Source: a virus (taxonomy: Duplodnaviria; Heunggongvirae; Uroviricota; Caudoviricetes). Taken from it: DNA of 64,000 bases. The stretch spans positions 38,417 through 102,416 of the IMG/VR virus record IMGVR_UViG_3300012359_000001; one strand, 5' to 3'. The notes beneath the pieces are model-generated. The model saw nothing but the letters and a program-made list of their open reading frames with translations, made no database searches and was not told the origin of the DNA. Shown here piece after piece: positions 7,365 to 46,973 of the stretch (position 1 is its first letter; the number at the start of each line of letters is the position of its first letter). Made by a program: the position numbers and the translations under genes.

Positions 7365-7567
7365 TATCCATCACACTCCTCTACTCGTCGTTTGTAGTCA
7401 GAGGGGCCAGGACGTTTGACAGGAATATTCCCTTGCTGTCGTAATTCCTTGAGCAAAGACTGTTCCAGTTCGTCTCGTACCACTTCGCGGATATACGCCT
7501 CCACCCGTTGCTGTAAGGGACCACCGGTAAGTGCAACCTCGATCGGGACAATAATCTTCTCTGCCAT
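7364..7567 (-). CDS. Hypothetical small protein
   Basis: 67-aa ORF with stops and starts abutting its neighbours. Confidence 0.3.
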   Translation of the reverse strand: MAEKIIVPIEVALTGGPLQQRVEAYIREVVRDELEQSLLKELRQQGNIPVKRPGPSDYKRRVEECDG

Positions 7568-21396: not shown

Positions 21397-21768
21397 TTAT
21401 TCCTTTGTACTGTCAGGAAAAAATGAGAGGTCTAATGCACATTCCCCATGTCCGATTGAGATGGTATAGGCGATTCTCCCATACCTTCTGTGCGTAGGTT
21501 CACCGATTTGTCTGATTGCATACCCGTCAGTTATTTCTCTGATAACATCCTCTGCTGGTGAGAGGGTTTCAGACCAGGGGATAGCGATGAGATCAAAGTC
21601 TTTTGCAAGGCTCCCATGAACAGCAAGTGCGTACCCATGCCTTTGAAATATCTTTGCCAGTTCAGGGTACAGCGCGGCGGCATACACGGGCGCATAGTTC
21701 GGCTTAATCTGCTCAGCCTCTTTCATCTCATCATTCGTCTCCATAGCCATGTGACGACGCCCAGGCAA
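21397..21768 (-). CDS. Hypothetical protein
   Basis: 123 aa. Overlaps the terL start by 38 nt. Confidence 0.35.
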   Translation of the reverse strand: MPGRRHMAMETNDEMKEAEQIKPNYAPVYAAALYPELAKIFQRHGYALAVHGSLAKDFDLIAIPWSETLSPAEDVIREITDGYAIRQIGEPTHRRYGRIAYTISIGHGECALDLSFFPDSTKE

Positions 21769-23110
21769 ACGGGTCTATCCGTTCAATCTCTGCAATCGTT
21801 GGTATCAGTACGGTTGTTGAGGTGACTTCTTCACCTCTCAATGGGACATTAGGACAAAACTTGTACGCGCATAAGTAGCGTTCACAATCTTTTGCATGAT
21901 CAAACTTCTTCACTGGTGCTTCATTCACTTTTTTACCATTAGAGGTATCCCAGATGTAATTCTCAAATTCAGCTTCAGAGCAAATAGGCAAACTTTGTTT
22001 CTGTAGCACCGGATCGACTTCTACTAGACTATCCCGTAAGAAGTACATGCCTGCTCGTCCGTTGGCATTCGGGCGTAATCTTGCTTGCATTTCTTGTATA
22101 CCCACTGACACCGCTTTGTTTGCAGCCAGGGTGCTATATCCAGTATAGCGTTCAAGCGTAGCGCGGTCTTCAGCATTATGATCGCAAATAATTGCAGATG
22201 GAGGTGGTTCACCCTGTGTTATCTGCATGATCAGTTTTGCGTGGTCTTCTACTAGTGTACCGGTCTTATAAATCTCATGGTAGCGGTACAGTTCGTCGTC
22301 GGGTGACTCGGCCCAGGCTTGCCATACAAACGGGTTGCGAAAGCCAAAGTCTACCACCCAATAACGCGGCCAATCGGCAGGGATATCAAAACGGTTGACA
22401 ATGTGCAGAGCAGGGTTCCATTCCTCCTCATACACCATACCCTCAGAGCTGGCCCAGATACCTTTACGCAACCGTAAGTACAGCACCCCTGATAACGCGT
22501 CTAACGTGGCAAGGTCTTCAGCAGTGCAGGCAGGGTTATCTTCATGCTTGCTATCAAGGAGCAACGTCTTACCCGCGTCACAGCGTTGTTTGAGCCAATG
22601 GTTAGCAGGACCAGGGTTACAGTCTCCAAGCAATTGCTGGTAGGGCATGACGTGATTACGTAGTCGTGATGTGAGGCTTTCCCAATCCACTTGATCCAGT
22701 TCTATCGCCTCTTGCGGATAGATAAAATCCCACTCTGATGACATGATCTTTTGTGGATCATCTAACCCGCCCACGGCTATGATACTCCCGTTGGGATACT
22801 CATATTGCTGATCAGTCACATTGAAGCGTATCAGGCTGCCGAGCCAGCCTTGCGGTAATACCTTCGTCTCATACGTCACCATAGCGGTTTGTGTGAGACT
22901 TTTGCGCGTTTTACGTACCATCAAGCCGCGCATACCCTTATACTTGTCAGCACAGTAATGCAGCTTTTCTATGGCACACCTAGATTTTCCAGTATTTGCC
23001 GCTCCGCACAAAAGCAACTCCCTACGAGCTGAGCGCCATGCTTTAAGAGCACCGCCGAAGGGTTGATACGGGCGCTTCTCTTTGACGTAGGAAGAGGCAA
23101 GAGTGATCAC
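21731..23110 (-). CDS. terL: Terminase large subunit
   Basis: Walker A-like LLCGAANTGKS near the N-terminus. 459 aa with a C-terminal nuclease-like region. The small subunit gene lies immediately upstream. Confidence 0.85.
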   Translation of the reverse strand: MITLASSYVKEKRPYQPFGGALKAWRSARRELLLCGAANTGKSRCAIEKLHYCADKYKGMRGLMVRKTRKSLTQTAMVTYETKVLPQGWLGSLIRFNVTDQQYEYPNGSIIAVGGLDDPQKIMSSEWDFIYPQEAIELDQVDWESLTSRLRNHVMPYQQLLGDCNPGPANHWLKQRCDAGKTLLLDSKHEDNPACTAEDLATLDALSGVLYLRLRKGIWASSEGMVYEEEWNPALHIVNRFDIPADWPRYWVVDFGFRNPFVWQAWAESPDDELYRYHEIYKTGTLVEDHAKLIMQITQGEPPPSAIICDHNAEDRATLERYTGYSTLAANKAVSVGIQEMQARLRPNANGRAGMYFLRDSLVEVDPVLQKQSLPICSEAEFENYIWDTSNGKKVNEAPVKKFDHAKDCERYLCAYKFCPNVPLRGEEVTSTTVLIPTIAEIERIDPFAWASSHGYGDE

Positions 23111-26915: not shown

Positions 26916-28193
26916 CTACTTGATGGGTGGAGCGTACTCAAAAGTAGCAGTTCCCAGGCGGCGGTACTGTGCTTGCCGCCCTCGCAAAACCGGATCGGCA
27001 GTTTTTGAGCTAGAGAGTGATGCCACATTCGTGTAAGAACCATGATGACTCTTCTGCATATTCAGAGCATCGCGCTTCTTGTCTAAATGGTCGTCTAGGC
27101 AGACTAGACGACCAGAGTTACTGTGATACAACATTTTCTGGTTCTTCTTCCACCTCGACGACTCTGACGCAGGCGATGGACCCGATGCATCCACGCCACA
27201 TTGCTTCCAGCGAGGGCTACGTGAGTAGTATGCAATCATAGCAGGATGGGCAACCGTATTATGGTAGCGATAGCCACGCTCATACAAATACTGGCCGAGC
27301 CAATCATCAAAACGTCCACCTAAACCTAAACCTTGATAATCAGGACGAACGACTAAGCGGTGCCCTTGCTTGATATTTCTGGTTTTCGGATGAGGAAGGT
27401 GCAAATAGGAAGAGAACGCTACGCACTCGCCTCCAATGAAACCAGCAAAGCATTGGGCCGCAGTATGGAGTACTCCACTTAGATAGTGATACTTGCTAAA
27501 CAGTCTCCATGCGGTTTTATCACACTGATAGATGCGGAACTCCAATTCTGGATGTCGTTGAAGTAACCTCCAATTGAAGGTATTAGTATGCGGCTGGTAC
27601 ACCCAATCAGGTTGTAACCAATCAAGCACATCATAATGGCACGTTACCGCGACCAATTGTTTTCCCGATTTGCGCACACTTTTCTGGATGCTGTGCGAAG
27701 CAACCTGCGCTACCTGCCGATCGACGACGCTGGTAAACTCATCAAGGACAATGAGATTCTCTGGTTCTAGTAACGCACGAGCCGCAGTGACACGGAACTG
27801 TTCACCCATGCTGAGTACAGCGTAGGGACGCATCCAGTTAGGAGGAGAACCAAAGCCGACACCGCACAACGATCCGGTGATATCCTTGATCGAAAGTCCT
27901 TTAGGCATTGCATCAACCACACTTTTATCAACGGGCCAGTCATCATAACCGATACGAACACAATCACCATAGAGAGCACGCGCAACCGTTGTTTTGCCAC
28001 TACCAGAGGGTCCAACAATAAGCCCGATGGACCAATCCTTTTGGTTGAGCGGCAAGTCAATATCCCAAGACTCAATAGATCGTTCTGAAATCGGGATATC
28101 GAATAAACTCTCTAATTGTTGTATACGTGCCGTTCGTTGCACGGCACATTCTTTCACGATATGCGCTTGCATTACAGTACCAGTGCCCGACAT
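26916..28193 (-). CDS. ABC-type ATPase nucleotide-binding domain fused to a GNAT-like acyltransferase domain
   Basis: Walker A GPSGSGKTT, signature-like LSMGEQ, Walker B LIVLDEFTSVVD, H-loop VTCHYD. C-terminal HRLVVRPDYQGLGLGGRF resembles GNAT motif A. Confidence 0.55.
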   Translation of the reverse strand: MSGTGTVMQAHIVKECAVQRTARIQQLESLFDIPISERSIESWDIDLPLNQKDWSIGLIVGPSGSGKTTVARALYGDCVRIGYDDWPVDKSVVDAMPKGLSIKDITGSLCGVGFGSPPNWMRPYAVLSMGEQFRVTAARALLEPENLIVLDEFTSVVDRQVAQVASHSIQKSVRKSGKQLVAVTCHYDVLDWLQPDWVYQPHTNTFNWRLLQRHPELEFRIYQCDKTAWRLFSKYHYLSGVLHTAAQCFAGFIGGECVAFSSYLHLPHPKTRNIKQGHRLVVRPDYQGLGLGGRFDDWLGQYLYERGYRYHNTVAHPAMIAYYSRSPRWKQCGVDASGPSPASESSRWKKNQKMLYHSNSGRLVCLDDHLDKKRDALNMQKSHHGSYTNVASLSSSKTADPVLRGRQAQYRRLGTATFEYAPPIK

Positions 28194-28783
28194 GTAATCC
28201 CCTCTCCCTGAAAGCGATCTAAGAGCACCAATTGCTCTTGCTCATTCTGGCAATCAATGATAATACCCCATCGCTCGGCAACGTCTGTTTGTTCAGCATT
28301 CCCCTCCTCTGGTAACTTGTCAGCATTTCTCCCTATCACCTCATCACCCAAACCCTCCAACATTTGCCGCAATGTCTCATCATCGCTACCAAGTGTCACC
28401 AGATCGTACCCTGCGTTTTGTTGTTCGGTAAGCAATTCTGCTAAAAGCGCATCATCGTCTACAGCATCCGCACTCAGGAGGTTATCGGCTACAATATAGG
28501 CATTGCATTCTAAATCAGAAAATGTTGGAGGCAGGATCGTTGCGTGAAGTTGGCTCATTTTGAGTTGTTGCGCCGCTTCGACCACACCATGACCTGCAAG
28601 GATCGTGTATGACCCATTCCCCTCATCCCTGCACACAATATCGCGCATCTGCCCGAAGCGTTCAAGACTCATCTTGATTTTATGTACTTGTTCGGGTGGA
28701 TGCGAACGGAAGTTCCGCTCAGATGGGTAGAGGGCAGCAACGGACACCTGATAATGCTCTTTGACAATCTCTTGCTCGATCAT
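28172..28783 (-). CDS. ParB-like nuclease domain protein
   Basis: LYPSERNFRSHPPEQVHKIKMSLERFGQMRDIVCR...YTILAGHGVVEAAQQL is a ParB/Srx fold pattern. Confidence 0.55.
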   Translation of the reverse strand: MIEQEIVKEHYQVSVAALYPSERNFRSHPPEQVHKIKMSLERFGQMRDIVCRDEGNGSYTILAGHGVVEAAQQLKMSQLHATILPPTFSDLECNAYIVADNLLSADAVDDDALLAELLTEQQNAGYDLVTLGSDDETLRQMLEGLGDEVIGRNADKLPEEGNAEQTDVAERWGIIIDCQNEQEQLVLLDRFQGEGITCRALVL

Positions 28784-29967: not shown

Positions 29968-30144
29968 CAAGGACCAATTGTGAATAACATGACGTAAAGC
30001 AATTCCCTTATTCAGCATACCAAACACCACAAAAGCGACCTGGAAAGATTGTTCTCCCAGGTCGTGATATCATTGGCTATTTTGCTGCAACTATTATCGT
30101 TCTACGGGTACGTTTACGAGGTCGTGTGTTTTACCGCCAACACT

Positions 30145-30615
30145 TCATGGGCAAGCTGTAGGGAAATACCTGCTTTTTTTTGCAAGTCGCTCAGGCGTAA
30201 TCTCTGGGTAAAGTTTCATGATGACAGAGACTCTACTTCCTAATTCACCTTTTATTAATGGTGAGCTATTTTTAGCCTGCCCTGTTTTTGATTTGCTTTC
30301 AAAAATGGACTGAAAATCTTTGTAAGTGAAAGACTTTGCAACATCCAGATTGAATAGACGCACCCCCAAGGAGAGGTAGTAGCGTATCCAATATTGCTCT
30401 CTTCCTTTAGCTTTCTCTATTGTTTCCACTTGCTCAAGAGTACGCATGATAAGCATGAAGCTTTCACTCTTTAGTTCCTGTATCCACTCATTCTTGTCGA
30501 TATTATTCCCGCTACACTGCACATGCTGAGAGAAGCGTTTATACACATCATCAGTAATGCCAACATAGCGTACAACATCGTTGCGAGGATCGATCAGGAC
30601 GTAAACAGCAATCAT
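30145..30615 (-). CDS. GIY-YIG homing endonuclease
   Basis: VYVLIDPRNDVVRYVGITDDVYKRFSQH is the GIY-YIG motif. Confidence 0.75.
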   Translation of the reverse strand: MIAVYVLIDPRNDVVRYVGITDDVYKRFSQHVQCSGNNIDKNEWIQELKSESFMLIMRTLEQVETIEKAKGREQYWIRYYLSLGVRLFNLDVAKSFTYKDFQSIFESKSKTGQAKNSSPLIKGELGSRVSVIMKLYPEITPERLAKKSRYFPTACP

Positions 30616-30627
30616 AGCATTGTCTCC

Positions 30628-30924
30628 CTACTCAAAACCCATATCGTCTAACAGGCTACTTGCAGCATCTCTTGCAGCATCAGTCACAACAACCCCTGAA
30701 ACTTTTGCCTCATGCTTTTTCTTCAGTTTACGATCAACTTTCTTCTTTGAGGCAGGCTTTCTTTCCTCGTCTGCCTCATCAGTGTAGGCAAGAATGGAAG
30801 CGGATTTAATGAGTACCCGCAACGGAATGGCTGACTTCTCAGCATGTTCTACCATCCGTTGCGCTGCCTGATTATCCTTTGGCAGTGCAATCTCAACATA
30901 CCAGTACTTCTCATGGTCTTTCAT
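30628..30924 (-). CDS. Putative ParR-like centromere-binding adaptor
   Basis: 98-aa basic/acidic protein immediately downstream of the parM-like gene, the canonical parMR order. Confidence 0.35.
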   Translation of the reverse strand: MKDHEKYWYVEIALPKDNQAAQRMVEHAEKSAIPLRVLIKSASILAYTDEADEERKPASKKKVDRKLKKKHEAKVSGVVVTDAARDAASSLLDDMGFE

Positions 30925-30927
30925 GTT

Positions 30928-31998
30928 TTACGCCCTCCGCAATGCGCGGCGCTGTCCGATCTGGTCTGCAAGAACGGCATACCCGCGAGCATTCGCTTTC
31001 TCAGGATCGGCTATCTGCACAGCGTTCTTGATGATTTTTTGTAGCGATGAATGGAAGTAGTACGCGCCGCCGCCGCAATGCAGCACTGATTTAAAGCTAG
31101 AAGCTACTTTGCCGCTCTGGTTACTCCACACACTAGAGATTTTTGCATTCTTCTCATCACCAGTTTCCTTGATAGCGGCTTTGACCCACTGCTGCAAATC
31201 TATCCCTGAAACTTGTATTCCATCAGCATACAGTTCTGGATAGGCACCAATATTGATACTTGCACGAAGGACAGCCTGCATTTCTGGCTCTGAGAGTTCA
31301 CGCCCGTATTTCGCCTCAAACTTTGTGCTCAACCGATAGAGGGCATTATTGACGCCGATCTCGAAACTATCGCACTGCTCAGTATGTGCCTTGTGTCCAT
31401 CAAAGCGAAGCATGTTGGTCGTGAGCGATCCGCTATCAACTATTCCTATCGTACTGGTCTTATCAAAACCGTGATAGATAGCAGCTCCCGCGCCCTCCAT
31501 GAACACCTTGACCGTCTCGACGCTGATCGCCATATCACGCCCATTGAACTGATAGCGATACACGCCGGTTAACTCTTCAACGATCTTGCTAGACTGTTCC
31601 TGGTAAGCACGCAAAGGAACGCCCATAACCAGATTGATGGAGAACTCCTGTATCCCAGGCCATATCTGCGCGGCAGCCAGCGAAGCAAAGCACATGATAG
31701 AAACCTGAGTACGTTTGTTGTGATAGCGGTGCTTGTCTTTAAAATCTGAAGTTGGGTTAAGTCCCTGCTCAGCAAGATCAGACAAAAAGTACACTGATCC
31801 GTCATATTCCACCATCAACTCGTTAGGATTGATGGTTTCACCGAGTCCACTGCCAGATTTCAGGGATTGATACTTCTTTAAGTTCCCTTCCGAGATGAGG
31901 CTTGACGCGTCGAACTCCAATAATCTGCCAGTATCCGTCATAACAGCGATATTTGTACGCTGATTGCCCCTGTCGAAGCCTAAATTCAATGTTTTCAT
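30928..31998 (-). CDS. parM: Actin-like ATPase, ParM/StbA family
   Basis: Phosphate-1 LGFDRGNQRTNIAV, phosphate-2 IVDSGSLTTN, adenosine HCGGGAY. Confidence 0.7.
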   Translation of the reverse strand: MKTLNLGFDRGNQRTNIAVMTDTGRLLEFDASSLISEGNLKKYQSLKSGSGLGETINPNELMVEYDGSVYFLSDLAEQGLNPTSDFKDKHRYHNKRTQVSIMCFASLAAAQIWPGIQEFSINLVMGVPLRAYQEQSSKIVEELTGVYRYQFNGRDMAISVETVKVFMEGAGAAIYHGFDKTSTIGIVDSGSLTTNMLRFDGHKAHTEQCDSFEIGVNNALYRLSTKFEAKYGRELSEPEMQAVLRASINIGAYPELYADGIQVSGIDLQQWVKAAIKETGDEKNAKISSVWSNQSGKVASSFKSVLHCGGGAYYFHSSLQKIIKNAVQIADPEKANARGYAVLADQIGQRRALRRA

Positions 31999-32019
31999 AG
32001 TGATTATGCCCTTTCTTTT

Positions 32020-32125
32020 GTACCGAATAATATTGAACTATACGGTATAGTTCGTTACTTTTTACCAGGATACCACAAAAATACCGAACTATCAAGTACT
32101 TTCCTGAACAGTTCGGAACTGATAA
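32020..32125. repeat. Centromere-like (parC-like) repeat array upstream of parM
   Basis: Palindrome GAACTATACgGTATAGTTC at 32035-32053. Related CCGAACTA and CAGTTCgGAACTG (32108-32120) repeats. Confidence 0.45.
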
Positions 32126-32395
32126 AATGGCCTAGTATAAGACAACACCTTTGTTTATGGAAAAATAAAATGCTGCATAGTTTGCAGCACATTACCTTCT
32201 ACCCAGTCTCTTTATCCCCTCAACATCTGATGAACCCGACCTACAACAAAACCCACAATACACACCAGCGATACAAGCGTACATACCGCCTGTACTGGCG
32301 CTACCACTGGCTTGATGTCAGGAACAAGCTAGATCGACACAATGAGCAGGGCGGCAATAACTCCTGTCATTTGCGCTAGCCTGAGCACTGGATTG

Positions 32396-32587
32396 TTATG
32401 CATATCGGTCCTCCACAATCGCACTCAGTACCCACCACACGAGCGCCATACCCGCTATAATGGGTACAACGAACGCCACTACACTCTGTTCAGCCGGATA
32501 CGCCCACAACAGGACCAGCAGGATTGCCAGCCAATTGAGGCACTGCTTGTAGAGTTCATCCATCTGTACGCTTAATCTGTTATGCAT
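32396..32587 (-). CDS. Hypothetical small membrane protein
   Basis: 63 aa with two hydrophobic segments. Confidence 0.3.
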   Translation of the reverse strand: MHNRLSVQMDELYKQCLNWLAILLVLLWAYPAEQSVVAFVVPIIAGMALVWWVLSAIVEDRYA

Positions 32588-32634
32588 TTTGATTTATCCT
32601 CTCTGTTCGGTTGTTATCCACAAGTTATTCACAC

Positions 32635-33204
32635 TTACGCTCTTCTCTTGAGTCCACATTGCTCTAGAACATAGGCGGCGTGGCGACGATAGCGGCTATT
32701 GGTGATACCCATTTTCGCCAGGGCATCATTCACATTGCCAACTTTCCGGTACCAATATTGCAGGTCATCATGTAAATTTTCTGGTAAAAACTTGTCATCT
32801 CCTCTAGGGATATACCCATCACGAGAAGAGTCGGGTCTATTTTTCACTTCCAGTGCTGCAACGGCTTGAATGGCTATTTGACGAGAAGCCTGCACTTGCA
32901 ACTTTTTAATCTCTTTGAGTGCTAATCTATGGGTAGCATTTGTAAGAGGTTCACTTAACGTCTCAAAATGTTTAATCCAATAAGCCTCTCGCTCAAGGGA
33001 AAATTGATAGTTTCCAACTTGTTCCAGTGTCTCCATAATGACCATGCGATTGAGCGCACGCAGTTCAAAAATCCAGGCATTCTTTACAAAACTGCTGCCC
33101 TCTCCGTTAATATGCTGAGTAAATCGCTGGTAGACATCAGTTGTTTGACCGACATAGTGAACGGTGTAGTCTCGCGGATCTACCAGCGCGTAAATGGTAT
33201 ACAT
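32635..33204 (-). CDS. GIY-YIG homing endonuclease (second copy)
   Basis: IYALVDPRDYTVHYVGQTTDVYQRFTQH. The C-terminal module ...SRYRRHAAYVLEQCGLKRRA is shared with the upstream ATPase. Confidence 0.75.
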   Translation of the reverse strand: MYTIYALVDPRDYTVHYVGQTTDVYQRFTQHINGEGSSFVKNAWIFELRALNRMVIMETLEQVGNYQFSLEREAYWIKHFETLSEPLTNATHRLALKEIKKLQVQASRQIAIQAVAALEVKNRPDSSRDGYIPRGDDKFLPENLHDDLQYWYRKVGNVNDALAKMGITNSRYRRHAAYVLEQCGLKRRA

Positions 33205-33205
33205 G

Positions 33206-35044
33206 TTATGCGTCCTTCTTCTTTAATCCCAACTCTGCAATCACGACTCTTGCATGCTGTCGATAACGGCTATCGGCTTGACAAAACTTCAGGCTTTTAT
33301 CGATGTTGCCAGTCATTTCATACCCTTTTGCGAAGAGTGCAATCTGTGTTTGGTTGAGTTGTGGCTGTGCGTCTGAGTGCGTCGTATGCGCTGGCTTCTC
33401 ATCTGGACGCACAGGACGTTGTACCGACGCACTGACTATTTCAGCTAAAATGAGACGATAATCAGCCTCAGAGATGCTGGTCAAGGCTAGAATGTCACTA
33501 TCAAGAAAACCAGCTTCACGCATTTTACGTATCGCTTCTACCTTGCCCATTGCACTGACAGAAGGCTCTAATCGCTGTACCGGTTGCGCAGAACGTTTTG
33601 TCAAGCAAGGGTTGCGTAACCGCTCAATCCCTGGTGTCTCGCTATAATCCTTTGACTCCCGCTTATCAAACTGAACCACCATTGGCTGTAAGGTGAAACC
33701 GAACACAACCGCTCTCCCAGGTGAGAGCATATTGATCTCCTCACGTGTAGCAACCTTTGCGTCAATTTCCTTCTCGCAGGCATCCAGGTCGTTTCGTTCA
33801 ACGTGCCGCGCAAAGATACGTATCTGGCAACTCTTGATCGCCCACTTGGCAATATAGGTCAAACTCTGTGTTGCAAAACCTACGGTATAGCCTGCTGATC
33901 GTCCATTGCTCACCAGCGTAAAGTACGAGTTGTTCAGTTCGTTGAGAAGTGGTTTATTCTCTCTGGCTTCAGGTGGAAGCAAGTCGATCTGTTGCGGCAG
34001 GTAGAGTTGCGCTTCATCTAGCAAGAGCCAGCAAGGGAGTAGCGTGCTGCCAGGAGGAAGCCCGTTCGCCATATCTAACTTGCGTTGCCTGATTGCATAG
34101 CGCATAAGCGACTTCCCAACTGCCGCTACAATTTCAGCCTTTGGCAACCACTTATCATCAGGGCCACCGTAGGAGGGAAGATTGACAATGGCAACACAAC
34201 GCTCCTCCATGACCATCCAGACAAACTCATCGACATTTTTGAGAGTCAGTTCAAAGAATTTGGGTACTCCTGCCATTTCAGCAGAGCCAGCATGGATGCC
34301 ATCAATAAAAGGCAAATCCAGAATAGGCGGGTATTCGCCCTTATGGTCAAGCACAATGATGGGAGCGCCACATTTGCCGCCTTGCTCAATAATGCGCCCC
34401 ATGAGTTGTGACTTGCCTGATCCCTGGACAGCACAGGCGACAAACCCTTTGCCGCTAATCTGATTGAAGTGAGGGTCAAACCTCTGTCCAGCTTTTACCA
34501 CTTTCCCCAGGACAATTGTTTCGTCGTGAGGGTAGGAAGGGAATACTGGCTCGTACACATCCTCCTTATCGTCCTCAAGTGCCTGCACAACAACCGGTCG
34601 GTCATCCTTCGGTTTTGCTACACTCTCAACAACTCTCTCATCAAGCGCGTATTCTAGTGGGGGTGTCGTCATCCCAACCAGTCGCATGAGTTTTGCTTTG
34701 ACTGATTGATCTTTGAACAACTCTTCTTCATCTTCAGGGGAAAGTGCCTCAACGACCTTTTCAGCAGTGATCTGTACTTGCTCTATATCCCCGCCAGGGG
34801 TAAGAAATGCCTGCTTGACCATTGAACCGGCATGAACGAGTTCACCAGAAAACAACCCCGCAATGACGGTACCTGCTATCCCGAAAAACGCGACGGTGCC
34901 ATTATGCGCAACCGCGTCAACAAACATAGAACTGGCAAATGCGCTGGTAGTAAGTATCACCCGCCCCTTAGAAACGTTACGCAAGTAAGAAGGGAGCATT
35001 GACTGCCCCCCACGCTTTGGTAGAATTTTCTCATTGTCTGTCAT
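33206..35044 (-). CDS. HerA/FtsK/VirB4-superfamily (DUF87-like) ATPase with an N-terminal hydrophobic region
   Basis: Walker A AVQGSGKSQLMG followed by IIVLDHKGEY (HerA-like). Walker B WLLLDEAQ. C-terminus ...DSRYRQHARVVIAELGLKKKDA. Confidence 0.55.
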   Translation of the reverse strand: MTDNEKILPKRGGQSMLPSYLRNVSKGRVILTTSAFASSMFVDAVAHNGTVAFFGIAGTVIAGLFSGELVHAGSMVKQAFLTPGGDIEQVQITAEKVVEALSPEDEEELFKDQSVKAKLMRLVGMTTPPLEYALDERVVESVAKPKDDRPVVVQALEDDKEDVYEPVFPSYPHDETIVLGKVVKAGQRFDPHFNQISGKGFVACAVQGSGKSQLMGRIIEQGGKCGAPIIVLDHKGEYPPILDLPFIDGIHAGSAEMAGVPKFFELTLKNVDEFVWMVMEERCVAIVNLPSYGGPDDKWLPKAEIVAAVGKSLMRYAIRQRKLDMANGLPPGSTLLPCWLLLDEAQLYLPQQIDLLPPEARENKPLLNELNNSYFTLVSNGRSAGYTVGFATQSLTYIAKWAIKSCQIRIFARHVERNDLDACEKEIDAKVATREEINMLSPGRAVVFGFTLQPMVVQFDKRESKDYSETPGIERLRNPCLTKRSAQPVQRLEPSVSAMGKVEAIRKMREAGFLDSDILALTSISEADYRLILAEIVSASVQRPVRPDEKPAHTTHSDAQPQLNQTQIALFAKGYEMTGNIDKSLKFCQADSRYRQHARVVIAELGLKKKDA

Positions 35045-35059
35045 ACTCCCTCTCCTTTC

Positions 35060-35593
35060 TTATGCCTTTTTCCAGGCGATACTCAACAAATGCATTCCGA
35101 TAGTTCCGAAGAACCCGACAATAAAACTAGTGACGATAGCGAATCCCCACCGGCCTGCCTCACCACTTCCGAAGCTTCCATACTGGTGATCAGTCCAGGC
35201 ATTGAAGAAGGAGATCACTACGACACAGCCAATAAACACCTTTGCCATAATCGGACCTGATTTGCTTGCGGCGTCATGGAGCACTTCATATCCAATGATG
35301 AGTCCCAGGATAACCAATTCAATCCCCCAGGCAAAAACGGATGATCGGGCTTCCGTTGAACTCATGTTGCCGGTAATCAGACCTGGAAGCTGAAGCATGA
35401 TCAGCCAGTTCGGGTGATAGACATCAATTTGACCTGAGTTGGTGATATAGGCTTCATTGGTCTGGATTTGCGTCATGATGCCAACAACCCACATCACTAA
35501 AAATCCTGCCGCCACGGTCCCAACAAAAAGAGCAGGATGTCCTTTTTTTGCTGTACTGGTTCGTGCTGGTGTCTGCTGTACTGGTTCTGCCAT
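35060..35593 (-). CDS. Integral membrane protein (about 4 TM)
   Basis: 177 aa with several long hydrophobic segments. Immediately upstream of the ATPase. Confidence 0.45.
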   Translation of the reverse strand: MAEPVQQTPARTSTAKKGHPALFVGTVAAGFLVMWVVGIMTQIQTNEAYITNSGQIDVYHPNWLIMLQLPGLITGNMSSTEARSSVFAWGIELVILGLIIGYEVLHDAASKSGPIMAKVFIGCVVVISFFNAWTDHQYGSFGSGEAGRWGFAIVTSFIVGFFGTIGMHLLSIAWKKA

Positions 35594-35674
35594 GAGATAA
35601 TCCTTTCATTTTGAGAATGTCGATCGAAAATCGTGTATACTAGTGGTGACTGTTACCCTACAAGGAGAAACTAC

Positions 35675-35878
35675 ATGGACAATCTGTTTGATACGCTGTA
35701 TGAGATGCTTGCAGAAGTGTCCCATCAACAAAAAATGGCTGCACTCTCTGTCGCTCACTGGCTCATACATCTGATCGATCGTGTCTACGATGACACCGCT
35801 GAGAGAGAAATACCGGTCTATATCCCGTTACATCCCATGACTTCAGGAGAAATAGACCGCGTAAAACCAAAAGAATAA
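35675..35878 (+). CDS. Hypothetical small protein
   Basis: Start set at MDNLFDTLYE after an AAGGAG RBS. Confidence 0.35.
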   Translation: MDNLFDTLYEMLAEVSHQQKMAALSVAHWLIHLIDRVYDDTAEREIPVYIPLHPMTSGEIDRVKPKE

Positions 35879-36026
35879 CTACTCTTGCCAATGGCGATAC
35901 TTCTCAGTAAGACCGTTCTCTTGTGTAGGATGGTCCCACTCTTTATTCTCGAATGCGCCACATGTGCCATATCGTGCAGGATAACAATAACGATTGCCAG
36001 TACTTGCAGAAGAAACATGGTACCTC

Positions 36027-36260
36027 CTACCAGGACATCGTGATATCATTGCGGGTCACACTACGCTGTTTCTGGATGGTGTCGATGCTGTGCTGAAGCT
36101 GTTGCCCTGTATTGGAAAGGGTACGACGGATATTCTGATACCAGTCTGCCGTTTTACTGACATCCCCGTTTGTGGGAGCAGTGAACACGATCATAAAAAT
36201 GACAATGATCGCAAAGACAGTGCCGATGAGGGGGCCGCAGCCAGATTTCTTTTGTTGCAT
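36027..36260 (-). CDS. Hypothetical small membrane-anchored protein
   Basis: N-terminal hydrophobic segment LIGTVFAIIVIFMIVF. Confidence 0.35.
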   Translation of the reverse strand: MQQKKSGCGPLIGTVFAIIVIFMIVFTAPTNGDVSKTADWYQNIRRTLSNTGQQLQHSIDTIQKQRSVTRNDITMSW

Positions 36261-36382
36261 ATGGTCCTTCTTTCTTTTGTTGTGCCAGGACCATCAGATA
36301 TACTGAGGATGCTGGCAAGTTCGGGTTAAAACGCTTTGCCGGTGCCTGCTAGGTGTTGTCGCACTCTGGCAGGTATTTGCTG

Positions 36383-37153
36383 TTACTTCCAGTAGTCTAT
36401 TTTTTCAGACATCCTGTACTCAAAACGAGTTGCATCTGCAATAGTTCGATGCAAGGCAACCACTGAATTATCAACAGAATAGTTGATACGACGCACTTCA
36501 AAGACAGGCTGAAAACGAGCCAGTTTTAATGTCTCGCACTCAGCAAATGTTGGTGGACGGGACTGGATGGTAAGATCGGTATGGTCAACTGATACACCGT
36601 ACTTCTGTTTGATAGCAAGCATCGTATCGAAGCCAGGGTCTTGACGCATCTGCTCTACAAAAACACTGGCAAGCGAAACCGGATACCAGATATGACCAAT
36701 CCTCAACGGTTGCTCATCTGTTCCCTGTAACCGTGATCGATGCACAACGTGAACACCTTCAGGGATAGCAATGTCTCCGTCTCTTTTCATAAAAAGAATA
36801 GCCACATCAGGAGGCATCGATGCAATCACAGGATCAACCAGGTTTTCTTCCACCGTCTTCAACCCTAATTTTTGTAAATGGGTTATAAAATTTGGCGTCA
36901 GACCAGGGAGAATGATCCGCAATTGTGCAACCTTGTAACGGTTACCAGCAACAGGAACAACAAGTCCTTCAGATCGTAGGATGAGCAACGCATTTGTAAC
37001 AGTCACGCGTATAGTTTTCCACTCTTTCGCAATAGAGGCGATAGAGGGAAGTATCCCTTCATTTCCGTAGTCTCCATTTTTAATCCGACTACGAAAATCA
37101 TCAGCTATCTGCTCAACTAGCGTCCCCCCTTCAGTATCACTCACTTCTTTCAA
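36383..37153 (-). CDS. GntR/HutC-family transcriptional regulator
   Basis: N-terminal GntR HTH (SIASIAKEWKTIRVTVTNALLILRSEGLV) plus a UTRA-like C-terminal domain. Confidence 0.7.
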   Translation of the reverse strand: MKEVSDTEGGTLVEQIADDFRSRIKNGDYGNEGILPSIASIAKEWKTIRVTVTNALLILRSEGLVVPVAGNRYKVAQLRIILPGLTPNFITHLQKLGLKTVEENLVDPVIASMPPDVAILFMKRDGDIAIPEGVHVVHRSRLQGTDEQPLRIGHIWYPVSLASVFVEQMRQDPGFDTMLAIKQKYGVSVDHTDLTIQSRPPTFAECETLKLARFQPVFEVRRINYSVDNSVVALHRTIADATRFEYRMSEKIDYWK

Positions 37154-37335
37154 GTCCTCTCTTAAACCTTGATATTAACTTCTCGATATGTTATACTCAA
37201 TATACCAGAGACAAAGCAGGTTTGTCAAGGGATTTTAGACAAAAAAAGAACTGATACGCAAATATCAGTTCCCTTATGACTCTGCAACACCTATGTCCTG
37301 AGAAAACGAGAGTGTTGCATTGAAAGGATTGTATC

Positions 37336-37560
37336 ATGCTTCGAGTTCCCACATCAAGCGCCTCTTCCACTCAGATTGAACGTCAGATCGAGACTGATTT
37401 ACGTCAGCATCTTGAAGACACCCCTCTTTTCTGGATTATCCGTAGCAATCGCTCTGTACAACGAACCTGGAATGAGTTGACTGAAACTGAACGTCAACAG
37501 ACTCAGGAAGCGCAAGTGCGAGCGCAGTATATTGCATTGTTTAATCCCTGTAACTGGTAG
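37336..37560 (+). CDS. Hypothetical protein
   Basis: 74-aa ORF downstream of a TTGATA, 17-nt spacer, TATACT promoter-like element at about 37172-37200. Confidence 0.35.
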   Translation: MLRVPTSSASSTQIERQIETDLRQHLEDTPLFWIIRSNRSVQRTWNELTETERQQTQEAQVRAQYIALFNPCNW

Positions 37561-37570
37561 GAGGTGGGGG

Positions 37571-37735
37571 ATGTACGTTCTAGAACGTGACGAGGAAGAC
37601 GCTACTCTCGACATGGGGAGCATTGCATTATTCATTGGCGGGTTAGATACCGTCAGCCTTGAGAACCTGGGAGCATTGATTGTATCGCTTGACCAGCAAG
37701 GCATTGAACAATTCGAGATCGAAACCACGCGGTAA
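37571..37735 (+). CDS. Hypothetical small acidic protein
   Basis: Start at MYVLERDEED after a strong GGTAGGAGGTGGGGG RBS. Confidence 0.35.
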   Translation: MYVLERDEEDATLDMGSIALFIGGLDTVSLENLGALIVSLDQQGIEQFEIETTR

Positions 37736-37739
37736 CGTT

Positions 37740-37776
37740 GGGGGTGAGTGACTATGCTCACCCCCTTTTTTATTTT
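37740..37776 (+). terminator. Rho-independent terminator
   Basis: GGGGGTGAG, loop tgactatg, CTCACCCCC, then TTTTTTATTTT. Confidence 0.7.
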
Positions 37777-37803
37777 CTTAGTAATCGCTGTAGGGGAGTT
37801 GAT

Positions 37804-38433
37804 ATGGAAGCGGACGAGTTGCCCGTAAAGAAAGCGAGAAAGCCTGATAAGAGGAGTCAGGAGCGTGGTGTATTCCCAGGCTTCAGGAGGCCCGATAGTG
37901 CTTATTTCAGTTTGCCGAATGAGTGGACAGATATCACAGCAGATATTCAGAGTTTGGCAGAATTAAAAATAGTCGAATACATTGCACGTCATACTTGGGG
38001 CTTCAATGAGTATGGAGGAAAGAAGCATATCACAACCGACGAGTTCATGCATGGCAGGTTAAAAGGCAAGGATACCCGCATGGATAGAGGTACGCAGTTA
38101 AGCGATAGGGGAGTGAAAGACGGTATAGAACTTGCTGAGAAGCATGGTTACATCGTTATCACAACTGACGAGAGCGACAAAGCACGCATCAGAAAGTACT
38201 ACGGTCTCAAGATGCTCCCTGTTGAAGTAGATGGGAAGAAACTTCCTACCAATACCTCACCAGATAGGAAGAGTCTTCCTCCCGCTAGGAACAAACTTCC
38301 CACTGGACAGGAGCACTCTTCCTATCGATCTAAGATAACCACTACAGACACACACCTGAAGAAAACCATTTCTGTTCCTCAATCACTTTCAATGGAAGAA
38401 ATAATCAGACGACAGAAAGAAGCCGCAAAATGA
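37804..38433 (+). CDS. Replisome-organizer-like replication protein (N-terminal winged-helix region)
   Basis: LAELKIVEYIARHTWGFNEYGGKKHITTDEFMHGRL resembles phage replisome organizer N-terminal domains. It immediately precedes the DnaC-like loader gene. Confidence 0.45.
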   Translation: MEADELPVKKARKPDKRSQERGVFPGFRRPDSAYFSLPNEWTDITADIQSLAELKIVEYIARHTWGFNEYGGKKHITTDEFMHGRLKGKDTRMDRGTQLSDRGVKDGIELAEKHGYIVITTDESDKARIRKYYGLKMLPVEVDGKKLPTNTSPDRKSLPPARNKLPTGQEHSSYRSKITTTDTHLKKTISVPQSLSMEEIIRRQKEAAK

Positions 38434-39095
38434 GAGATAATCCCTACGAAGAATTAATGCAACGGCAGGAGAGACAGCGTAAGCAGCAATCGTGCGTCAG
38501 GTGCTATACATGGCTGAGAGAAGACCTGGACATCTTACGAGAGAAAACATTCGAGAACTACCAGCGTGATCTCTTCCCATCGGCCTATGACCGCCTCCTG
38601 GCATTTACTCAGCATAAAGACGAACAAGACGTGGCGATTGCACCCCGCGAGAACTTTATCATCTTTGGAGGATATGGAACTGGCAAAACACACCTGCTTA
38701 CAGCGACACTGAACAAATTGTGCAAGAGGCTGGTACCGTGCCGCTTCATGACCGGTCAAGGTTTGTTTGATGCTATCACCAGGGCCATCGGGAACCATGA
38801 ACAGTATCAGGGATACCTTGATGACGCCGGCAGTATACCCGTGCTGGCAATCGATGACATTGACAAGGTTCACATACCAGCAGCAACCAGAGGGACTGAA
38901 GATAACTTTCAGGTCAAGACGTTCTTCGCTATTCTCAATAAGCGCTACATGAAGAGACTGCCAACGCTCATCACGACCAATGCAATGGATATCACCCCGT
39001 ATGTAGGAGGTGCTTCGTTCTCACGATTGAAGGAATGCGGCAACTTTGTAAGCATGGAAGGGAAGGATTTTCGAGATAGCCTGATCCACTGGTAG
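38430..39095 (+). CDS. DnaC/IstB-like helicase loader ATPase
   Basis: Walker A IIFGGYGTGKTHLL. Walker B VLAIDDIDK. Confidence 0.7.
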   Translation: MRDNPYEELMQRQERQRKQQSCVRCYTWLREDLDILREKTFENYQRDLFPSAYDRLLAFTQHKDEQDVAIAPRENFIIFGGYGTGKTHLLTATLNKLCKRLVPCRFMTGQGLFDAITRAIGNHEQYQGYLDDAGSIPVLAIDDIDKVHIPAATRGTEDNFQVKTFFAILNKRYMKRLPTLITTNAMDITPYVGGASFSRLKECGNFVSMEGKDFRDSLIHW

Positions 39096-44152: not shown

Positions 44153-44541
44153 GCGACCCCCTTCGTGCCATACATCCCGCCGTACTCCTGCTCCAACTTT
44201 GCCGCAACCATCTTGGCATGCTCAGGGGTTGCACGCTCGCAATAGGCAAGCCAGTTATGATAGCCTTGCCTGATGAAGAACCCGCCTGCATCCTCCTCTT
44301 CCATACGCTTTGTTTCCCCATTCCACCGTTTTTGTGTGAATATCATTTCCAACTCAGGGCATCCATAATAGCGTGCCTGTTCTAGCAACCGTGCAGCATG
44401 TGCATGTTCCTTGCAAAAGCCGCTCTCACCTGCTGTATTGGTACAGGCTGTGATGCGCCGTGGAAAGACGGTAGAAGGCTGCGTGATCTCGAACTGGCAG
44501 CACGACTCTTGCTTGATTGCTACTCCAAAGAGGTATTTCAT
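44149..44541 (-). CDS. Hypothetical Cys-rich protein
   Basis: 130-aa ORF. Confidence 0.3.
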   Translation of the reverse strand: MKYLFGVAIKQESCCQFEITQPSTVFPRRITACTNTAGESGFCKEHAHAARLLEQARYYGCPELEMIFTQKRWNGETKRMEEEDAGGFFIRQGYHNWLAYCERATPEHAKMVAAKLEQEYGGMYGTKGVA

Positions 44542-45290
44542 GCCTCTTGCTCACTTTCTGGCATATCCCACGGTGGGGTATCATCTTCATTGGTTACAGG
44601 TGCCTGCTTGCGCAACTCTTCGCTGACATGCTGTAACTGCATTCGTTTAAGTCGAGAGGCAGCCTGCACTACAGACCTTGCTTGCGTCACTTCGTCACGA
44701 GAGAGGATATACATCGCCTCCTCACGGCATCTTAAAACGGCAGGGTGTAACTCAGGAGGCACATCAAGAGACTGATTAGGAACAGGTTTCTGAGCAGTAA
44801 AGGCAAGGAGTAATTGGTACAGCATTCGTGTATCTTCTCTCGTAAAATCATCGGGCGCAATAATGCCGCATACGTGAGAAGTAAGGCTTGTTGCCTCAAG
44901 GAGAAGCCCAACAAGTAGATCCTCCCAGGTCTGCACGGTCACTTTCTTGTTTTTGCGTACCACCGTTGGATCAGGGTATAAAGCGTGCCCTGTCTTATCC
45001 ATGAGATCAGATTGCTCCACTTTGGAATGGAAGTGTTCATGACACGATTCGCAAAGCGTGGTTAAGTCATTCAAGTCTTCGCGCCCACGTCGTTGGTATG
45101 TGCGATGATGCACCTCTAACTTTTCATTGCTATAACAAAGTCGGCAACGATGATCATCACGGATAAGCGTTTGTTTCCGTTTCTCTGCCCATTCAGGCGT
45201 TCGTAAGTACTCGGCATACGGCATACGTGCTAACTGCTCTTTGCGCTGCTCATTAACAGTCAAACGAGAGAACCATTCAGGATCATTCAT
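44538..45290 (-). CDS. HNH endonuclease domain protein
   Basis: DDHRCRLCYSNEKLEVHHRTYQRRGREDLNDLTTLCESCHEHFH is an HNH motif. Start probably at MNDPEWF (45290). Confidence 0.7.
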   Translation of the reverse strand: MNDPEWFSRLTVNEQRKEQLARMPYAEYLRTPEWAEKRKQTLIRDDHRCRLCYSNEKLEVHHRTYQRRGREDLNDLTTLCESCHEHFHSKVEQSDLMDKTGHALYPDPTVVRKNKKVTVQTWEDLLVGLLLEATSLTSHVCGIIAPDDFTREDTRMLYQLLLAFTAQKPVPNQSLDVPPELHPAVLRCREEAMYILSRDEVTQARSVVQAASRLKRMQLQHVSEELRKQAPVTNEDDTPPWDMPESEQEA

Positions 45291-45637
45291 TATGCAACCT
45301 CCTGTATTTCTAATGCCGCCATTGCTAACGCCGTGATACATTCATCACTTCCCATCAATGTAATCTGCACTGCGTACCAGGGACCAGCCTCAATCGAGTA
45401 GTACTTGACTTCATCAAGAGTGATATCGGTCAAAGCAGGGAAGCCACGTGAAGAGAGAATGTCAAGGAAATCTCCACGTATCCGATGTTCCGTACACCAG
45501 CACATCCCGGCGCAATCTCGATAGACCACCTCTGGTACATCCATCTCAAATTGCTGCAAGGTGTCTTTATCACACCGCATACACTCGCCTGGACGCTCAA
45601 TCTCTTGTAGTTTTCTCCGTATTTCAGTGATGTTCAT
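45290..45637 (-). CDS. Hypothetical protein
   Basis: 115-aa ORF. Confidence 0.3.
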   Translation of the reverse strand: MNITEIRRKLQEIERPGECMRCDKDTLQQFEMDVPEVVYRDCAGMCWCTEHRIRGDFLDILSSRGFPALTDITLDEVKYYSIEAGPWYAVQITLMGSDECITALAMAALEIQEVA

Positions 45638-45647
45638 GGTTGACCTC

Positions 45648-46973
45648 TCAAACCGTTAAGGGATAACACATTGTCTCATCCGCTTTGAAGTACAGGGACA
45701 CCGTACCAGTTGGCCCATTGCGATGTTTTGCTATCTGTAATTCCATCACATTCGAGTTTTCAGAAGGTCGGTTTTCTAGCGCGGCATAATAATCATCCCG
45801 GTAAATCGTCAATACCACATCAGCCGTTGCCTCAATATCCCCGCTATCCCGTAAGTCTGAAAGGATCGGGCGTTTGTTGCCGCGTGACTCAACTGAACGT
45901 GAGAGCTGAGAGAGGACTATTACTGGCAGGTTAAATTCTTTCGCAAGGTTTTTTAACTCAAGGACAATACGCCCGACCTCATGCACCCGGTTATCGTTTT
46001 TGTGCTCCTCTGGCTTGATCAAGCCGAGGTAGTCCACCAGCACCAGATCGACCTTCCCTTGCGTCTGGATGAGGCGGCGCAACTGGCTCCGTATTGAGAC
46101 AACCGGATTGCCAGAAGTATCATTGATGTAGAGTGGCAACTGTGCAAGGTTCTTTGCGCAAGCTAGAACTGACGCCCACTGATCGCTCTCAATCCATCCA
46201 CTGCGTAGCCTCTGCATGTCTACCTTGCTTTCCATGCTCATGAGGCGGCGCATCAGTTGCTTGCGTCCCATCTCAAGGCTGAAGACTGCAACGCGTTTTC
46301 CCCGGCATGCCGCATTGTAGGCAATGGACATCCCCAGGCTGGTTTTTCCTGATCCCGGTCTGCCTGCCAGAATGATCAGGTCCGTATCTTGCAACCCGCA
46401 AAGAGGATTATCCAGGTCGTCATAACCCGTTGGCACACCGGTTATTCTCCCTTTGTTGGACTGCAAAAACTCCAACTCCTTCAGGTATTCTGGCATGAGG
46501 TCTGCCGTGGATTGAAATTCTGCATGCGCAGAATACTCTGAAATCCCGTAAAGGATTTCCAGTGACCGTTCAATGGGATCGCCCTCTTGATCGTATCCAG
46601 CTTGAGCGATATCAGCCGCCGCCTGAATGACTTTACGCCCAATTGCGGTCCGTCTGACAATATCTGCATAGACCGTCACATCACGAACCGTCATCACGTT
46701 TTCCATCAAGTCTGCAAGGTACTTCGGACCGTCATCAAGCGTATCCATCACATCTCGACGGTACAACTCATCAGTGACACTAATCAAGTTGGGGCTTATC
46801 CGACGTGTGATAAGTGACCGGTACACCTCGAAGATAGTTCGGTGGGCATCACGATAAAACATGTCAGGGGTGATCGTTTCTGCAATCTTGTCATAACTTC
46901 GTGACTGAAACAGGATGCATCCTAACAATGCCTGCTCCGCTTCAAGGTTATGTGGCAATCGAGGCTCTTTCAT
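45648..46973 (-). CDS. dnaB: Replicative DNA helicase, DnaB family
   Basis: N-terminal LPHNLEAEQALLG. Walker A AGRPGSGKTSLG. Walker B LVLVDYLGL. The SQLSR and KHRNGPTG motifs are present. Confidence 0.85.
   Translation of the reverse strand: MKEPRLPHNLEAEQALLGCILFQSRSYDKIAETITPDMFYRDAHRTIFEVYRSLITRRISPNLISVTDELYRRDVMDTLDDGPKYLADLMENVMTVRDVTVYADIVRRTAIGRKVIQAAADIAQAGYDQEGDPIERSLEILYGISEYSAHAEFQSTADLMPEYLKELEFLQSNKGRITGVPTGYDDLDNPLCGLQDTDLIILAGRPGSGKTSLGMSIAYNAACRGKRVAVFSLEMGRKQLMRRLMSMESKVDMQRLRSGWIESDQWASVLACAKNLAQLPLYINDTSGNPVVSIRSQLRRLIQTQGKVDLVLVDYLGLIKPEEHKNDNRVHEVGRIVLELKNLAKEFNLPVIVLSQLSRSVESRGNKRPILSDLRDSGDIEATADVVLTIYRDDYYAALENRPSENSNVMELQIAKHRNGPTGTVSLYFKADETMCYPLTV

Follow-up and report, generated by a model that had tools for sequence, protein, structure and literature searches.

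The nuclease Odn of phage ICP1, which belongs to the GIY-YIG superfamily, carries a DNA-binding domain that copies that of its satellite's RepA and cuts the RepA-bound origin, and in related phages the DNA-binding domains of such nucleases mirror variable RepA_N domains (PMC8263062, PMC10448857). In Streptomyces, the C-terminus of TraB recognizes clt, TraR is a GntR-type protein, and SpdB2, which has four transmembrane (TM) helices, has homologs on actinophages (PMC4447253); TraB recognizes 8-bp TRS repeats (PMC4170104). Here we analyze a locus with likenesses to both systems. It lies in a 64,000-nucleotide stretch of a 102-kb tailed phage (IMG/VR record IMGVR_UViG_3300012359_000001, positions 38,417 to 102,416), hereafter the window, which is numbered from its first nucleotide. 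The phage carries adjacent genes for a membrane-anchored HerA/FtsK-superfamily ATPase, a putative double-stranded DNA (dsDNA) translocase, and for a GIY-YIG endonuclease, and it also encodes plasmid-like partition genes (Table 1). The ATPase and the nuclease end in homologous tails. Why should a nuclease share its C-terminus with a DNA pump? The explanation that we prefer, to which we give about an even chance, is that a translocation module lies beside a fixed-site homing-type nuclease whose recognition end was captured from the pool of translocase tails.

The evidence begins with the tails themselves. ATPase residues 575-610 and nuclease residues 152-188 are identical at 15 of 37 positions (41%; BLASTP E 5e-6). 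In a six-frame translation of the whole window this match is the only significant one (E 5e-5; the next best lie at 0.25-0.55), and a hidden Markov model (HMM) built from 34 ATPase tails and no nuclease sequence matches nuclease residues 135-188 at 74.7 bits (E 4e-16, computed with Z = 1.8e9). BLASTP, the six-frame search and the ATPase-only HMM all reject chance similarity. A first-pass annotation had noticed the recurrence, rightly, but put its length at about 40 residues; the module comprises about 55-58 and begins near IPRGDDKFLP in the nuclease. The same annotation offered a shared DNA-binding module as one of two explanations. It is indeed common to the two proteins, and it is modeled as a small three-helix domain with a DNA-binding-like fold and no wing; that it binds DNA we infer. 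The tails end in basic K/R runs. A Pfam search of type-A tails, the type to which both belong, returned nothing, and Foldseek gave no match to the tail below E 0.7.

Was one tail copied from the other where they now stand? The sequences indicate instead that the two copies diverged long ago and are not a local duplication, because their coding segments agree at 52% of nucleotides, codon choice differs at 9 of the 15 identical residues, and foreign ATPases carry closer tails. The nearest relatives of the nuclease tail are on the ATPases P0083 (73% identity over 63 residues), P0088 (67%) and P0131 (60%), against 41% for the resident ATPase, and P0083 belongs to a different genome and a different ATPase subfamily. 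The resident ATPase tail has relatives of 62-70% identity on ATPases and of 48% on the nuclease P0104. The earlier suggestion that a homing endonuclease carried a copy of the 3' end of its host gene during insertion is not supported by these figures. It also lacks support because neighboring ATPases and nucleases differ in tail type at 7 of 10 related loci, and because the ATPase of L003, an endonuclease-free relative, already has a type-A tail. Since such relatives have the tail type on the ATPase, we regard the tail as native to the ATPase family.

Both tails belong to a larger pool. Homologs of the ATPase share a conserved core (50-60% identity in the best-matching core segment) and end in unrelated tails; homologs of the nuclease conserve about 125 N-terminal residues, again followed by unrelated tails. 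When 75 ATPases and 21 nucleases were clustered by their last 65 residues, five clusters mixed both families, the largest of them winged-helix-like and the others designated types A, B, C and D. Weak matches to HTH_36, HTH_24 and MarR (2e-4 to 8e-3, all below cut-offs) were obtained for the commonest tail cluster. An hmmsearch with the type-A tail against 1.84 billion representative proteins gave 77 matches, among which the long proteins P0122, P0148 and P0149, with partial multi-stretch matches, were set aside as spurious. The remaining matches sit C-terminally, within about 15 residues of the end; the carriers that can be classified are GIY-YIG proteins, fragments, or ATPases that span at least five divergent HerA/FtsK subfamilies. 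Given this range of carriers, we take the tail to be a mobile unit that, as far as detected, occurs only in these two neighboring gene families. A word-indexed search with the tail alignment returned only P0082 and no new carrier family; P0082 was rejected as a new tail carrier, being the frameshifted C-terminus of an ATPase beside an insertion sequence element. At L042 (57-1051), an ATPase is split by a frameshift just before its type-A tail, and a transposase-like open reading frame (ORF) comes next; this locus may be decaying, or the frameshift may be a sequencing error. Viral contigs scanned for type-A tails yielded none, and the ATPase and the tail pool are both missing from 80 distant GIY-YIG loci of IMG/VR.

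Within the pool, tails have passed between the ATPase and nuclease families many times. This conclusion is drawn from the kinship of nuclease tails and from the fate of similar catalytic parts: for the window nuclease and for P0104, P0117, P0146, P0073, P0074 and P0071, the closest tail is that of an ATPase (58-73% identity) and not that of a nuclease, and the nucleases P0062 and P0065 have catalytic parts that are 71% identical and tails that differ. At L004, the resident tails retain 60% protein identity over the aligned region and 71% over a 52-residue BLASTP core, with 58% DNA identity, and 26 of their 39 identical residues use different codons. That protein identity was kept while synonymous sites diverged argues that both tail copies are held by selection on the protein. 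Tandem tail modules occur in some GIY-YIG relatives, with type A present twice in P0144 and type D twice in P0072 and P0073.

How far does the parallel with Odn extend? As in Odn and the T5orf172 nucleases, a GIY-YIG superfamily domain from a family of phage homing endonucleases is fused to a putative DNA-binding domain whose homolog sits on a protein that is not a nuclease, and the identity to the donor is 42% between Odn and RepA_N and 41-73% between the nuclease here and translocase tails. In both cases the copied domain is variable and swapped among elements, and the nuclease variants mirror this variation. The donor differs, being the C-terminal tail of a HerA/FtsK-type translocase here and a replication initiator for Odn, and the order is reversed, with the nuclease domain N-terminal and the copied domain C-terminal. 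The donor-type gene and the nuclease gene are adjacent in one genome, whereas Odn sets a phage against a satellite; the host lineage is Chloroflexota-like rather than Vibrio. A further case came from the 80 distant GIY-YIG loci of viral contigs. In L049 (3783-4495; also L050 and L051, one phage in three metagenomes), the C-terminal domain of a 169-residue GIY-YIG protein is ribbon-helix-helix-like and shares 36% identity over 66 residues (E 9e-11) with a 68-residue protein encoded immediately upstream, the two genes overlapping by 4 nucleotides (nt). It appears to be a copy of the upstream neighbor's DNA-binding domain, taken from a different partner than here.

The nuclease matches Pfam GIY-YIG (PF01541) over residues 1-82 (37.3 bits, with the curated cut-off at 22.6; E 3.5e-9). 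Across 21 sequences of its family, Y5, Y17, G19, R27, H31 and E73 are invariant and N89 is nearly so, residues which we take to match the numbered motif residues of I-TevI; a sequence search of the PDB with the nuclease found nothing significant. An N-terminal GIY-YIG domain with Y, Y, R, H, E and N, joined through a linker to a small C-terminal putative DNA-binding module, is likewise the build of I-TevI-type enzymes and the T4 Seg proteins. GIY-YIG homing enzymes of the I-TevI type require a separate DNA-binding domain, and the 189-residue nuclease has no candidate for one besides its tail. Unlike the corresponding part of I-TevI and Seg, this end is not a zinc finger or of NUMOD type, and it derives from a C-terminal pool of at least five types in the adjacent gene family. 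Also unlike in I-TevI and Seg, the nuclease gene is tightly coupled to the gene upstream. The ATPase stop codon TAA (33206-33208) is followed by one base and then by the nuclease ATG at 33204, a 1-nt separation where the first-pass annotation had an overlap, and a Shine-Dalgarno-like GAAGGA lies 8-13 nt upstream of the ATG within the ATPase tail codons. A consensus scan between the two genes found no convincing terminator.

The gene is nevertheless sporadic. Of 20 non-redundant ATPase loci that were identified independently of the nuclease and that each have at least 700 nt of downstream sequence, 2 contain the nuclease. Where both genes were seen, the nuclease gene is directly 3' of the ATPase gene in every case (10 of 10 loci). 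At L003, whose ATPase tail is of type A, the ATPase gene is followed straight by a ParM-like gene and the nuclease is absent. Sporadic occurrence at a fixed intergenic site by a conserved gene, with several nuclease genes per genome, is what free-standing homing endonucleases display. This distribution marks the gene as a probable free-standing endonuclease gene of homing type, as do its modular architecture, a catalytic motif that is intact and the further nuclease genes that the genome carries.

Two other nuclease genes lie in the window. A second GIY-YIG gene (30145-30615, minus strand, 156 residues) follows the ParM-like gene and a gene for a 98-residue protein on its 3' side; L035 has a GIY-YIG gene at the equivalent position (4169-4648) whose catalytic part is 39% identical, and the second GIY-YIG protein's C-terminal part has no match in the tail pool or the window. 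An HNH endonuclease gene (44538-45341, minus strand; Pfam 5e-5) adjoins the genes for DnaB and a RepO-like protein and is another candidate selfish nuclease beside an essential gene.

What kind of protein is the ATPase? It contains the motifs AVQGSGKSQL (Walker A), VLDHKGEY and LLLDEAQ that had been recognized at first pass, and residues G208, G210, K211, S212, D233, K235, E237, D343 and E344 are invariant in 53 homologs. Its Pfam match to DUF87/HerA is marginal (24.0 bits, cut-off 23.2), and a profile of the 53 homologs finds Sulfolobus HerA (4d2i) in the PDB with an E of 1.9e-5. In an AlphaFold (AF2) model built from the homolog alignment, the core (residues 160-480) has a predicted local distance difference test score (pLDDT) above 95. 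The top 50 Foldseek matches of this model in the PDB are all HerA hexameric DNA translocases (E 1e-13 and higher, to 1e-9), at about 10-15% sequence identity. The core is preceded by a hydrophobic hairpin at the N-terminus and a disordered acidic linker, and it is followed by a small internal helical domain (residues 500-541) and the C-terminal tail. Kyte-Doolittle analysis of residues 28-70 gives one or two segments, weaker than those of the 177-residue membrane protein encoded next to it. As for the features of HerA proper, the N-terminal 160 residues form a hydrophobic helical region and a disordered linker, no search being aimed specifically at a HAS barrel, and no NurA, SIR2 or DUF4297 partner gene lies nearby.

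The first-pass annotation had proposed a HerA/FtsK-type translocase or coupling protein rather than a replication helicase. The HerA neighbors, the separate DnaB and large terminase (TerL) and the four-TM partner bear out the translocase; VirD4, TraG and VirB4 are not the best matches. Neither VirD4/TraG/TrwB nor VirB4 gives a Pfam match in the window ATPase, and both are absent from the Foldseek top 50 in the PDB. Roles as replication helicase or terminase were rejected, since DnaB and TerL are encoded elsewhere in the window. Pfam FtsK_SpoIIIE does not match the window ATPase. The L036 protein at the same genomic position matches FtsK_SpoIIIE at 6e-11, and the proteins found at this position span several divergent HerA/FtsK subfamilies. 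With the ATPase as query, tblastn gave no match in phages, and its matches among 72,556 plasmids were confined to distant haloarchaeal DUF87 genes. Between the internal domain at residues 500-541 (window 33422-33547; pLDDT 86-90) and the first half of type-B tails there is a weak resemblance (39% over 31 residues, E 9e-5 in a database of about 170 tails), which an HMM of type B failed to confirm at E < 0.01; the ATPase may carry two tandem small helical modules.

Hydropathy analysis agrees with the earlier assignment of a four-TM protein beside the ATPase, placing hydrophobic segments of the 177-residue protein at 19-43, 82-105, 112-134 and 149-172 (Kyte-Doolittle). This protein has no Pfam or PHROG match and no tblastn match in plasmid and phage collections. 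A protein of 171-204 residues is encoded at the equivalent position in L003, L004, L036, L037 and L038, and the order membrane protein, ATPase, GIY-YIG nuclease (where present) and ParM is kept in at least eight related contigs.

Together, these genes recall the layout of TraB, Spd and TraR-KorA in Streptomyces. A membrane-associated protein of a hexameric dsDNA-pump family with a short C-terminal putative recognition domain is encoded on one strand with a four-TM protein, TM proteins of 77 and 63 residues and a GntR regulator, probably in a mycelial host lineage as in Streptomyces (the host here by inference), though the resemblance of layout is an analogy only. Unlike that of TraB, the ATPase core is closest to HerA and not to FtsK, the tail is modeled with three helices and no wing, and no clt-like repeat array was found; unlike the Streptomyces module, this one is located in the genome of a tailed phage with its own terminase. 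The pairs HerA-NurA, HerA-DUF4297 and HerA-SIR2 resemble it in that HerA is the best structural match of the core and a nuclease gene adjoins the ATPase. They differ in lacking the N-terminal membrane hairpin and the C-terminal helix-turn-helix (HTH) tail that are added here, and in sequence (about 10-15% identity). The neighboring nuclease here is a GIY-YIG enzyme and is usually absent, and the setting is a phage partition and replication region rather than a repair or defense operon. Finally, the gamma domain of FtsK/SpoIIIE is also a small C-terminal helical domain on a membrane-anchored translocase and gives sequence-directed loading, but it has no sequence similarity to the tail, which here comes in many unrelated types.

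How might such a system work? The module would consist of a GntR regulator, small membrane proteins, the four-TM protein and a membrane-anchored hexameric HerA/FtsK-type dsDNA pump, whose three-helix C-terminal domain would most likely select the element's own DNA. The pump would move or retain the genome of the phage, or phage-plasmid, across the membranes or septa of a mycelial host. The DNA-binding end of the nuclease would be a module from the translocase tail pool and not a classical homing-endonuclease domain. As a copied recognition domain, it would guide the nuclease to the DNA sites bound by translocases with that tail; the nuclease would cut genomes carrying such sites, whether nuclease-free alleles or rival relatives, and its gene would be copied in during repair of the cut genome.

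Several observations weigh against this account. Candidate sites did not emerge: k-mers of 8-10 nt repeated in loci with a common tail type include no type-specific motif. No sequence similarity to TraB or SpdB2 was detectable by tblastn in plasmid and phage collections. The phage host is probably a member of the mycelial Ktedonobacteria, because homologs of the ATPase occur in Thermosporothrix hazakensis and in a Ktedonobacteraceae metagenome-assembled genome, but this call is indirect and rests on homologs only. Translational coupling of the nuclease to the ATPase across a 1-nt gap would be unusual for a purely selfish gene. Same-type resident pairs occur at 3 of the 10 loci that hold both genes (the window, L004 and L037), and at L004 the closest relative of the nuclease tail is the resident ATPase tail, a pattern no less compatible with a partnership on one site than with the targeting of rival genomes.

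Other short repeats are present around the locus. A repeat scan of 31900-36500 found only short pairs. The 9-mer CTGTACTGG occurs four times in the window against 0.38 expected: two copies form part of an exact 14-nt direct repeat, 25 nt apart, in the first codons of the four-TM gene (35549-35587), one lies where non-coding sequence separates the nuclease unit from the ParM-like gene (32290-32298), and another is at 6018-6026.

Could the nuclease be a dedicated accessory of the translocase? Both proteins would then dock on one cis site through their like tails, and the nuclease would nick or linearize the DNA for threading into the pump, an arrangement comparable to HerA-NurA, to the HerA-nuclease defense pairs or to a relaxase with its coupling protein. 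Such a partnership would account for the gene spacing, the GAAGGA within the ATPase tail codons and the lack of a convincing terminator between the genes. It would suit an ATPase whose structural neighbors are HerA proteins with the partners NurA, DUF4297 and SIR2, and it would explain the same-type pairs, above all the L004 tails with their 71% core identity despite synonymous divergence. We nonetheless consider it unlikely. The nuclease is absent from 18 of the 20 independently found ATPase loci, including L003 with the same tail type; the two tails are of different types at L026, L035, L036, L038, L039, L040 and L041, that is, at 7 of the 10 loci holding both genes; and the window nuclease tail resembles foreign ATPase tails far more than it does the resident one. 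That the tails of resident pairs co-vary strictly is rejected, and the excess of same-type pairs, 3 of 10 where about 1 is expected, is weak (P about 0.07, calculated by hand from the type frequencies of the tail clusters). At L039, the 138-nt gap between the ATPase and GIY-YIG genes (1255-1392) holds a long imperfect inverted repeat, in which a GT-rich run comes first and its AC-rich complement after it (GTGTGTTGTGGTGTGATG ... CATCACAACACAG). At L004, a lytic transglycosylase (SLT) gene (6929-7474) lies between the nuclease and ParM-like genes; the presence of a cell-wall hydrolase beside a membrane DNA pump would be in keeping with transfer of DNA across the envelope.

A different possibility, which we hold to be more doubtful still, is that the tail binds a protein partner, such as the membrane or Spd-like proteins or the partition apparatus, rather than DNA, with tail types tracking the variants of the partner. 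The C-terminal recognition domain of Streptomyces TraB also contacts SpdB2 and Spd198 in two-hybrid assays (PMC4447253). Type-A tails, moreover, have no Pfam match and no significant fold match. A docking role sits poorly with the weak, sub-threshold resemblance of the commonest tail cluster to winged-helix HTH families and with the basic K/R runs at the tail ends, and it would leave the nuclease without the DNA-binding domain that a GIY-YIG homing enzyme needs. The least probable alternative is that the nuclease gene duplicated the 3' end of the ATPase gene on insertion, its tail being a local copy, functional or not: although the genes are adjacent and co-oriented, both modules are C-terminal and the unrelated phage L049 shows a comparable neighbor copy, the diverged coding DNA with its scrambled synonymous sites, the different subtypes of the two tails, the 60-73% identical ATPase relatives of the nuclease tail in other genomes, the different-type pairs at most related loci and the conservation of both tails as protein in intact ORFs all speak against it.

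The capture of a translocase tail by a homing-type nuclease thus remains the reading that we prefer, and the surroundings of the locus fill in its setting. The stretch from the GntR gene to the 63-residue ORF is bracketed by a promoter-like site and a terminator-like hairpin (consensus scans only), and at L036 a GntR gene likewise adjoins the module. The ParM-like gene is a conserved downstream neighbor, found at the equivalent position in L004, L035 and L037. Just upstream of it, beside promoter-like hexamers, short inverted repeats around AGTTCG/CGAACT (32026-32092) form a cluster that looks like a partition-site or operator region. Elsewhere the window encodes a tape measure, an HK97-type capsid, a prohead protease, a portal, the large terminase, DnaB, a RepO-like protein, a beta clamp and a DnaC/IstB-like loader. 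The fusion of an ABC-type ATPase to a GNAT acetyltransferase adjoins a weak ParB_N protein. No tRNA genes were found in the window, and megablast of positions 30000-38500 against phage and plasmid collections gave no close DNA match. An identical ATPase sequence is found on a metagenomic viral contig of 102,432 bp.

Table 1. Features of the locus and of the rest of the window (window coordinates; aa, amino acids; TM, transmembrane).
Feature	Position	Strand	Remarks
Promoter-like site	37228-37199	-	11/12 matches, consensus scan only
GntR/UTRA-family regulator	36383..37153	-	Pfam GntR 4e-8, UTRA 3e-12; first gene of apparent transcription unit
77-aa protein with one strong hydrophobic segment	36027..36260	-	hydropathy peak 2.65 at residues 5-35; in ORF list; called as gene on source contig
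177-aa polytopic membrane protein	35060..35593	-	immediately upstream of ATPase; 4 predicted TM segments
612-aa membrane-anchored HerA/FtsK-superfamily ATPase, putative dsDNA translocase	33206..35044	-	
N-terminal hydrophobic hairpin of ATPase (aa 28-70)	34835..34963	-	hydropathy 1.3-1.7; helices 26-46 and 52-64 in model
C-terminal three-helix tail of ATPase (aa about 555-612), type A	33209..33382	-	'TGNIDKSL...SRYRQHARVVIAELGLKK' subtype
189-aa GIY-YIG endonuclease, probable free-standing homing-type gene	32635..33204	-	
C-terminal tail of nuclease (aa about 132-189), type A	32638..32811	-	'VGNVNDAL...NSRYRRHAAYVLEQCGLKRRA' subtype
63-aa small hydrophobic protein, 3' of nuclease	32396..32587	-	two hydrophobic segments; AGAGGA ribosome-binding-like site upstream; called as gene on source contig
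Terminator-like hairpin	32170..32190	-	8-bp stem then T run, consensus scan only; ends unit ahead of ParM promoter region
ParM/Alp-like actin partition ATPase	30928..31998	-	Pfam ALP_N 1e-11; PHROG partition protein 5e-35
Large terminase TerL	21731-23110		
DnaB helicase	45648-46997		
Truncated ABC-type ATPase fused to GNAT acetyltransferase; SPFH/Band-7; GmrSD_N (DUF262); second GntR	26916-28783 (-), 52132-53004 (+), 57715-58800 (+), 56056-56772 (+)		other cargo

What would this mean for the biology of these elements? How homing endonucleases gain new targets is an open question, and the capture of a recognition domain from a neighboring, locally acting protein would be a simple route. Recognition-domain capture has been shown experimentally once, for Odn, and deduced by bioinformatics for related nucleases, with a different donor protein; here it would be a family-wide pattern, with at least five tail types common to both families and many apparently independent exchanges. 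The series of tails is a natural data set with which to ask whether pressure from nucleases diversifies DNA-recognition domains, and the module would supply small, interchangeable DNA-binding domains for programmable GIY-YIG nucleases. A membrane-anchored, tailed HerA/FtsK pump with Spd-like and GntR neighbors further suggests a route of spread or retention for large phage-plasmids in multicellular filaments, here in a phage probably of an actinomycete-like Chloroflexota lineage. A bolder picture, which we put forward tentatively and think possible rather than probable, is that phage-plasmids of mycelial Chloroflexota possess a TraB-like pump whose swappable tail sets which DNA is moved, and that GIY-YIG nucleases capture these tails to find and cut rivals. 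If this is true, actinomycete-style machinery for dsDNA transfer or spread would for the first time be in evidence outside Actinomycetota, and on a tailed phage; translocase tails would diversify under a standing arms race, in the way that Odn is proposed to drive the swapping of RepA.

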